This document shows positions 1 to 478 of a DNA stretch of 64,000 bases, piece by piece. The notes beneath the pieces were generated by a model. That model ran no database searches. It saw nothing but the letters and a program-made list of their open reading frames with translations, and was not told where the DNA came from. Source of the DNA: a virus (taxonomy: Duplodnaviria > Caudoviricetes); the IMG/VR virus record IMGVR_UViG_3300011559_000001, positions 1 through 64,000 of that record, one strand, 5' to 3'. How positions within the stretch are numbered: the first letter of the stretch is position 1; each line of letters starts with the position of its first letter. Made by a program: the position numbers and the translations under genes.

Positions 1-48
1 TACCATCCAAACGGAAGGTCGCGAGTTCGATACTCGCCTATCGCTCCA
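1..48 (+). tRNA. 3' half of a Gly-type tRNA-like gene (truncated by window edge; anticodon arm non-canonical)
   Basis: ..TCCAA-ACGGA-AGGTC, T-arm GCGAG-TTCGATA-CTCGC, acceptor strand CTATCGC + TCCA (U73, typical of Gly). Confidence 0.75.
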
Positions 49-58
49 TCGTTTCACC

Positions 59-180: not shown

Positions 181-325
181 GCGCAGGTAGTTCAGTTGGT
201 AAAACGCCACCCTTATAAGGTCGCCGGTTCGAATCCGGCATGGGACGCCAGTCCCATTAGCTCAGTTGGATAGAGCATATAAAACCAAGGTGGAGTCACA
301 GGTTCGAAGCCTGTCCAGCGCTCCA
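181..325 (+). ncRNA. tRNA-Gly body with a circularly permuted Arg-like tRNA nested in the anticodon arm (two-headed tRNA)
   Basis: Outer GCGCAGG/CCAGCGC-TCCA and CCACC/GGTGG; inner 213-282 = TTATA-AGGTC-T arm-ATGGGAC-GCCA-GTCCCAT-D arm-TATAA. Confidence 0.85.
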
Positions 326-343
326 AGTTTCAACAGTTCGATA

Positions 344-478
344 GCGTTTGTAGCTCAGCAGGTAGAGTGCTCGTAGATGGGGTTCGACTCCCCGCTGCCC
401 AACCGTGTGCAAGCACGGTTCGGCGGTTACTGGTTGCCAAACGAGAGGTCACGGGTTCGATTCCCGTCTTACGCTCCA
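344..478 (+). ncRNA. tRNA-Gly(GCC)-like gene with a 59-nt structured insert 5' of the anticodon loop
   Basis: GCGTTTG/CTTACGC-TCCA, CTCGT/ACGAG stem, TTGCCAA loop at 434-440; insert 375-433 has a second T-loop and a GNRA hairpin. Confidence 0.8.

Follow-up and report, generated by a model that had tools for sequence, protein, structure and literature searches.

The window analysed here, the first 64,000 nucleotides of a 310,882-base phage record, appears to encode at positions 181-325 an RNA in which the anticodon loop of a tRNA-Gly-type body has been replaced by a circularly permuted body derived from a tRNA-Arg. Comparison with its relatives shows that the single chain forms two tRNA L-shapes connected by way of their anticodon stems, and that it has a D/T elbow in each body, a closed inner acceptor, one free acceptor end and no anticodon loop (Table 1). 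This architecture, which we term the two-elbow RNA, is real and conserved, and it appears to be undescribed in the literature searched. An initial sequence-only reading had remarked that no such phage RNA was known; in agreement with this, the two-body design was found neither in that literature (most subscription journals lay outside the search) nor in Rfam. The inner module alone already has a known counterpart in the YrlA RNAs.

Table 1. Predicted elements of the two-elbow RNA and of the neighbouring bodies in the tRNA cluster (window coordinates unless marked)
Feature	Position	Strand	Remarks
Sister Gly-type body holding a complete normal-order tRNA in its anticodon loop	genome 310,654 to window 50	+	window 1-50 is its 3' end
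Sister class-II (Leu/Ser-type, A73) body, hairpin replacing the anticodon	59-169	+	
Whole two-elbow tRNA-like RNA gene, 145 nt	181-325	+	covariance model (CM) score 135 bits (window copy in seed)
Outer acceptor, 5' strand	181-187	+	Gly determinants (bacterial): G1-C72, C2-G71, G3-C70
Outer U8/A9 and D arm, G18G19	188-205	+	D arm 190-205; G15 pairs with C48 (297)
Outer anticodon stem, 5' strand	207-211	+	partner 289-293
Junction loop between the anticodon stems, 5' side, 1 base	212	+	0-10 nt in relatives
Inner anticodon stem, the 3' strand of the permuted tRNA	213-217	+	partner 278-282
Inner variable loop and T arm	218-239	+	T arm 223-239
Inner acceptor 240-246/251-257, 7 perfect pairs	240-257	+	4-base loop 247-250, G73 then CCA
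Candidate RNase P site within the inner acceptor	250/251	+	
Inner U8/A9, D arm (A20) and anticodon stem 5' strand	258-282	+	D arm 260-276
Junction, 3' side, six bases	283-288	+	C35, C36, A37 and A38 remain here from the anticodon loop of the Gly ancestor
Outer anticodon stem 3' strand, 4-base variable loop and T arm (A51-U63)	289-314	+	T arm 298-314
Outer acceptor 3' strand, U73, encoded CCA	315-325	+	followed by the AU-rich spacer motif of the cluster
Sister Gly-type body with reduced permuted insert (T arm, sealed acceptor hairpin, D-loop remnant)	344-478	+	
Normal tRNA-Gly(UCC), decoding paralogue, tight G51-C63	493-568	+	

Every segment that the sequence-only reading assigned to the nested, permuted tRNA was located where it had been placed, and all four inner helices, which it had described as perfectly paired, pair fully. 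The outer body is slightly less regular, with 6 of 7 acceptor pairs (an A5.A68 mismatch, which recurs in the orthologue from L491) and 3 of 4 pairs in the D stem. The two strands of its anticodon stem are separated by 77 nt, as against the 7-nt loop of a canonical tRNA-Gly, whereas the Gly acceptor identity elements U73, G1-C72, C2-G71 and G3-C70 are all present. Comparison with 2456 tRNAs bears out the proposed derivation of the outer body from a tRNA-Gly and of the inner body from a tRNA-Arg, as the 40 best matches included 16 tRNA-Gly for the former and 20 tRNA-Arg for the latter. The further suggestion that the inner body retains Arg identity fared less well: A20 and G73 are indeed present in the window copy, but C35 is absent, and A20 is found in only 2 of the 12 family members with a class-I inner body.

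The arrangement is unlikely to be a product of chance, as none of 3000 dinucleotide shuffles gave any match to a parser for the architecture, and none of 200,000 shuffles of the strand letters attained the observed 23 of 24 pairs across the four swapped helices. The nested fold has a computed energy of -41.7 kcal/mol versus -1.7 for two tandem tRNAs. Nevertheless, the single-sequence minimum free energy structure (-48.2) is another fold which keeps only 12 of the 40 pairs of the nested one, and the case for the nested fold therefore comes from covariation and comparison rather than from the folding of a single strand. Nearest-neighbour energy minimization commonly misses the true fold of tRNAs.

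Covariation across relatives provides the principal evidence for the nested, permuted architecture. When the 12 class-I members were aligned with MAFFT alone, RNAalifold predicted the nested fold unprompted. Over the 12 aligned members 34 of the 41 pairs vary on both sides by compensatory changes, and 93% of the cells are paired, a level reached by none of 500 shuffles and well above the 35-46% of slid controls, although these pairing statistics are inflated because most members were chosen by a pairing-based parser; those chosen without reference to pairing are the copies from RTH11 and L491 (by synteny) and L493 (by eye). In all six variable helices strands pair better with their own partners than across members, whereas pairing as two tandem tRNAs is at background level in the family.

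Standard annotation passes over the element, as ARAGORN in its default mode makes no call on 181-325 and Rfam gives no match there at gathering score; with introns allowed, ARAGORN reports the region as a tRNA-Ile(TAT) with a 70-nt intron. The design thus escapes both tools and is unannotated in the cultured phages RTH11 (Xanthomonas) and FLC9 (Burkholderia), both of which carry members, making it immediately testable. In addition to the window copy we found at least 18 further members in at least 10 other large phages, so that the arrangement is not the unique one-off that the sequence-only reading had considered. Of the members recovered, 12 have a class-I and 6 a class-II inner body, and one more lies in FLC9 (LC667451.1, 129,228-129,378, minus strand), giving at least 11 phages in all. 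The members came from pattern scans, a structural parser and look-ups of neighbouring genes, and these counts are lower bounds. The members are 53-75% identical to the window copy, and the RTH11 orthologue (OQ790161.1, 75,849-75,998) occupies the same slot with different letters. Wherever this could be checked the carriers are chimallin phages, the exception being the 168-kb genome of L071. The close relative L490 and phage LucasX are without the 181-325 member. Protein-seeded scans of viral contigs gave no relatives, and three further pattern scans no new member among the matches listed. In cellular genomes none of 93 pattern matches had the architecture, the pattern being a narrow one that would miss the window's own copy.

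Both elbows retain U8, A14, the G15-C48 (Levitt) pair, the T-loop and the D-loop G throughout the family, with A15-U48 replacing G15-C48 in both heads of the L071 member, and both anticodon stems are likewise conserved. The inner acceptor is more variable. Its loop begins with G, at the position corresponding to N73, in 11 of the 12 class-I members, and a perfect 7-bp stem is seen in 5 of the 12, three of them with 4-base loops, whereas the stem is extended or broken in L052, L493, L071, L233c, L494b and RTH11. The two CCA ends proposed in the sequence-only reading have a basis in the window copy, which encodes an inner CCA, but are not a feature of the family, since only 1 of 18 members has an NCCA loop on the inner acceptor and even the closest orthologue, that of L491, has lost it. 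The junction triplet and the junction size are not conserved, and a fixed distance between the two heads was rejected, as junctions vary between a single shared 6-bp stem (L500:10775) and loops of 10 by 6 bases. The former, L500:10775-10906, is a minimal version of 132 nt in which one 6-bp anticodon stem is common to both tRNA bodies.

The outer acceptors, classified with the determinants given in PMC9976931, are of Ala type (G3.U70, A73) in 10 of 18 members, or 11 if a one-base shift is accepted, of Gly type in 3, and of His type (G-1/C73) in 2; the RTH11 orthologue combines the Gly pairs with G73, and one member has no clear type. A valine-type reading does not hold for this set, as A35-C36 occurs in 1 of 12 members and acceptors of the GGG type have G3.U70. 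Within each phage one main acceptor type is common to several bodies with different inserts. Inner and outer modules recombine between phages: an inner module is common to L493 and L052, another to L494b and L233c, and an outer module to L494b and L052. With respect to the origin of the window copy, deletion of 215-284 restores the loop of tRNA-Gly(UCC) exactly, from which we infer that a permuted tRNA-Arg was probably inserted between U34 and C35 of such a tRNA. The C35 and C36 of the junction are also found in L491 and L052, and are absent from RTH11.

The phage encodes chimallin and is a relative of Xanthomonas phage RTH11. The chimallin nucleus shields phage DNA; translation is unshielded. 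The end of the record overlaps its start by about 123 bases, and the tRNA cluster at the beginning of the window therefore continues at the record's end. Within it 181-325 is the third of four consecutive bodies with the anticodon loop replaced. The body that starts at genome position 310,654 has a counterpart at L490:6183-6340; its inner tRNA has its own CCA and an odd anticodon loop (ARAGORN Ile-AAT), and could be excised by ordinary tRNA processing. The slot of the class-II body at 59-169 is occupied by a tRNA-Ser(GGA) call in RTH11 and by a normal tRNA-Gly(GCC) in L490. Orthologues of the body at 344-478 are present in RTH11, L490, L491, L494, L497, L233 and FLC9; its Gly(GCC) loop remnant is not conserved, and the RTH11 copy has G-1 and C73. 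The AU-rich spacer that follows 181-325 is a cluster-wide motif with 7-fold enrichment in the cluster, and a promoter scan gave nothing above shuffles.

About 7 kb upstream, at genome positions 303,280-303,930 (L002:7281-7931), lies a gene for an RLIG1-type ATP-dependent RNA ligase with an intact KxDG motif. Its homologues are found in mycobacteriophages and in Ralstonia/Burkholderia jumbo phages, but tblastn detects none in RTH11. Phages of the second clade carry near the cluster both an RLIG1-type ligase and a DxDxT protein with weak resemblance to polynucleotide kinase-phosphatases, a combination that fits a conflict over tRNA damage. No gene for Ro60, RtcB, a CCA-adding enzyme, FemAB, Acetyltransf_6 or an MprF-type protein was found in the carrier genomes searched.

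The closest structural comparison is with YrlA (RF02553; PMC4201824). The sequence-only reading had likened the uncut inner module to this RNA, and the order of T arm, acceptor hairpin and D arm, together with the Levitt pair, supports the comparison; both RNAs have a permuted module with a closed acceptor, a length of about 145 nt, and a possible RNase P cut with CCA addition. They differ at the other end, which in the two-elbow RNA is a complete tRNA body with a free CCA and in YrlA a Ro60-binding stem. Membership in the YrlA family was rejected, as not one of the 18 members has the Ro60 motif GNCGAAN(0-1)G within its first 40 nt, none of 6 phage genomes has a TROVE/Ro60 gene, and the best partial RF02553 scores on the element are 19-30 bits against a gathering threshold of 69, none of them spanning the inner module. 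True YrlA-like matches beside TROVE-like genes do occur in other loci, and a Ro60 supplied by the host is conceivable. A stand-alone permuted module of T arm, acceptor hairpin and D arm follows tRNA-Ser(GCT) at L002:14020-14110 (genome about 310,020-310,105); it is kept, with changes, in RTH11, L490 and L491, and is YrlA-like without Ro60.

The nearest phage precedent is furnished by the tRNA introns of Lak phages, where a tRNA-Thr(TGT) has a tRNA-like insert in its anticodon loop (PMC6784885). However, the Lak gene has intron-less alleles, its host tRNA has an anticodon, and the insert is not described there as permuted. Its nearer counterpart is the sister element at genome 310,654, not 181-325. 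Classification as an intron-containing tRNA was rejected: removal of the insert restores a canonical loop in the window copy but fails to do so in 8 of 12 members. Two-piece and TLD-only tmRNAs (PMC11915505) share with the two-elbow RNA a permuted tRNA-like domain and, presumably, maturation by tRNA processing, as well as an Ala acceptor in the case of most relatives. Unlike them, the two-elbow RNA has complete D arms and anticodon stems, two elbows and no tag frame; since, in addition, the window member is of Gly type (the Ala acceptor being that of 10 of 18 relatives) and Rfam tmRNA_permuted scores 16.9 versus a gathering value of 47, identity with tmRNA was also rejected. Cyanidioschyzon and some archaea have circularly permuted tRNA genes whose products are rejoined at a bulge-helix-bulge to give a working, anticodon-bearing tRNA. 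These too place the 3' half before the 5' half, joined across the acceptor, but in the two-elbow RNA the open ends continue into a second tRNA. The staphylococcal non-proteinogenic tRNA-Gly, a normal cloverleaf with a weak A51-U63 pair, feeds FemXAB. It resembles the two-elbow RNA in combining a Gly acceptor with A51-U63, yet no Fem-type gene was found with the latter.

We propose, with what we regard as an even chance of being right, that the two-elbow RNA is a tRNA mimic that can be charged but does not decode, and that it sequesters host effectors directed against tRNA. The encoded CCA and the spacer it shares with its neighbours suggest that the 181-325 RNA would be cut out of the cluster transcript like them, and the presence of all four Gly acceptor determinants, together with the survival of C35 and C36 in the junction, that host GlyRS would charge its outer end. 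The charged RNA would be unable to enter the decoding site and hence would read no codon. It is conceivable that, as a stable decoy proof against anticodon nucleases, it binds effectors that read the acceptor stem or the elbow, toxSAS pyrophosphokinases, aminoacyl-tRNA acetyltransferases and the like being conjectural candidates, and thereby spares the real tRNA-Gly. The inner body would then act as a protective cap and second elbow, not as a second tRNA. More tentatively, and somewhat short of an even chance, nucleus-forming jumbo phages in general may make modular, aminoacylated, anticodon-less two-elbow RNAs as a counter-defence titrating such effectors, with modules shuffled as in an arms race and, by the same tentative account, with acceptor types (Ala, Gly, His, Leu/Ser) whose charging can depend little or not at all on the anticodon.

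In favor of a mimic we note that the outer acceptors are non-random in type, falling among the 18 members into the Ala, Gly and His types. AlaRS, HisRS and GlyRS are the classic examples of enzymes able to aminoacylate acceptor microhelices, and the anticodon plays no part in recognition by LeuRS and SerRS. The identity of tRNA-Ala lies entirely outside the anticodon (PMC9976931 Table 1). Furthermore, acceptor-reading toxins, some with a preference for tRNA-Gly, are linked to anti-phage defence (PMC11559606; PMC7595197), and phage tRNAs are known counters to tRNA-targeting defences (PMC11555353). The covariation, the conserved elbows and the exchange of modules described above also speak for the mimic, as does its setting in a chimallin phage, where DNA but not translation is shielded and an RNA ligase is encoded near the cluster. 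The sequence-only reading had pointed to A49-U65 and A51-U63 in the outer T stem as pairs associated with weak EF-Tu binding; with the pair values of PMC3239215 Table 2 this is correct for A51-U63 (+1.1), while A49-U65 is tight (-0.5 kcal/mol). The T-stem sum is +0.4 versus -0.7 for the normal tRNA-Gly of the phage, a predicted weakening of EF-Tu binding by 1.1 kcal/mol, and across the family the outer T stems are predicted to bind more weakly than normal tRNAs of the same loci (mean +0.68 versus +0.24, p=0.012, with members that are not independent). Against a decoy it must be said that the known phage tRNA counter-defences supply usable tRNA; that the outer stem of the window copy lacks two of the four determinants of FaRel2 (it has C4-G69 and A5.A68 instead) and would therefore be a poor decoy for that toxin; that a perfect second tRNA body is not obviously needed by a decoy; and that a relative as close as L490 dispenses with this member. 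Nor would charging be universal, as the G73 of the RTH11 orthologue probably precludes its glycylation. If a decoy role is true, it would be a counter-defence unlike the known supply of spare tRNAs, and would offer a reason for the many apparent pseudo-tRNAs in the tRNA clusters of jumbo phages. Even with no function assigned, the two-elbow RNA is a natural scaffold for studying what synthetases, RNase P and EF-Tu require of a tRNA.

Several other explanations share parts of this evidence. The perfect 7-bp inner acceptor would permit RNase P to cut the window copy at 250/251, as the sequence-only reading proposed, giving a two-piece, base-paired RNA with two acceptor ends. The other perfect stems in the family and the near-constant G at the inner N73 are consistent with such a cut, and there are precedents in the YrlA of M. 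smegmatis, also with a 7-bp stem, which RNase P cleaves and which gains CCA/CA (PMC4201824), and in permuted tmRNA, matured by cleavage of this kind (PMC11915505). Yet the YrlA of S. Typhimurium stays uncut (PMC4201824), the inner NCCA is confined to a single member, and the inner acceptor is sealed or broken in so many members that the cut cannot be required. Charging of the second end by ArgRS is likewise unlikely, as C35, a main ArgRS determinant (PMC9976931), is missing and A20 is rare. We therefore hold the two-ended RNA to be unlikely, though not negligibly so, and the cut may in any case be a processing step of the same mimic instead of a different function. Splicing, by which an intron of 215-284 would be excised as a 70-nt circle and the flanks joined to a normal tRNA-Gly(UCC), is a distinctly improbable alternative, even though the deletion recreates the exact loop of the phage's own tRNA-Gly(UCC) in agreement with the Gly acceptor, a ligase with intact KxDG lies nearby, and tRNA introns, one of which may itself encode a tRNA, are known from Lak phages (PMC6784885). 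The members in which no deletion restores a canonical loop include both orthologues (L491 and RTH11), RTH11 lacks the ligase and no RtcB was found, a group I intron would not fit in so small an insert, in which no bulge-helix-bulge was seen, and 170 bases downstream the phage already has an intact tRNA-Gly(UCC). As a fossil, the recreated loop more plausibly records where the insertion took place.

Two further proposals keep the charged acceptor of the preferred mimic and change its destination. A Gly- or Ala-charged RNA withheld from EF-Tu might serve as a non-ribosomal donor for an aminoacyl transferase, for which the Gly and Ala acceptors, the weak 51-63 pair of all three orthologues and the phage Mu enzyme Mom, which uses Gly-tRNA-Gly (PMC13219725), may be adduced. 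However, weak binding is not general, because two of the three sister Gly bodies of the window genome have a tight G51-C63. Those stems, the lack of FemAB, Acetyltransf_6 or LPG-synthase matches in five carrier genomes, and a second elbow that a donor would find superfluous leave a donor role with a low probability. About as improbable is a factor directed at the ribosome, where the charged RNA would either take over peptides on stalled or split ribosomes or hinder host rescue. Ala identity dominates the family as it does in tmRNA, and the TLD-only mini-tmRNA of DS6A inhibits endogenous tmRNA (PMC11915505); against this there is no tag reading frame, the window member is of Gly type, and the second body would be expected to clash with the 30S decoding site. 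The place of SmpB would be taken by the complete D arm and anticodon stem. Lastly, a neutral recombination relic of two tandem tRNA genes, or a misassembly, is very improbable. The distribution is patchy, as the cases of L490 and LucasX attest, and tRNA arrays recombine easily, but 181-325 is identical in three other assemblies (one Logan and two NCBI metagenome, from samples possibly in common with the window's own record), which all but disposes of the misassembly considered at the outset, two cultured phages carry members, and compensatory changes keep the swapped pairing across copies of 56-75% identity.

Several additional elements were observed in and around these clusters. About 300 structured non-coding bases between tRNA-Met and tRNA-His (L002:14245-14550, genome about 310,245-310,550) are strongly conserved in RTH11, L490 and L491 and have no Rfam match. 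Phages of the second clade share, downstream of the cluster, a long non-coding region that is conserved and contains an invariant core of about 25 bases (L233:2380-2700, L493:13420-13800, L494:13620-13960, L497:11720-11990); that of L233 has no match in Rfam. Ala-type bodies at L233:1235-1370, L493:11775 and L497:10691 carry a different insert of two hairpins, one with a T-loop-like loop. Small phages (L010, L017, L040, L054, L058, L080 and L088) contain paired tandem permuted T-acceptor-D modules with no outer closing tRNA, which are a family separate from the two-elbow RNA. Directly 3' of the cluster terminator the window encodes a CxxCxxCC (PF03692) protein (1446-1784), kept in L490 and L491, and at L499:12180-12760 a tRNA-Leu-like gene is split by an insert of about 500 bases that resembles a group I intron.
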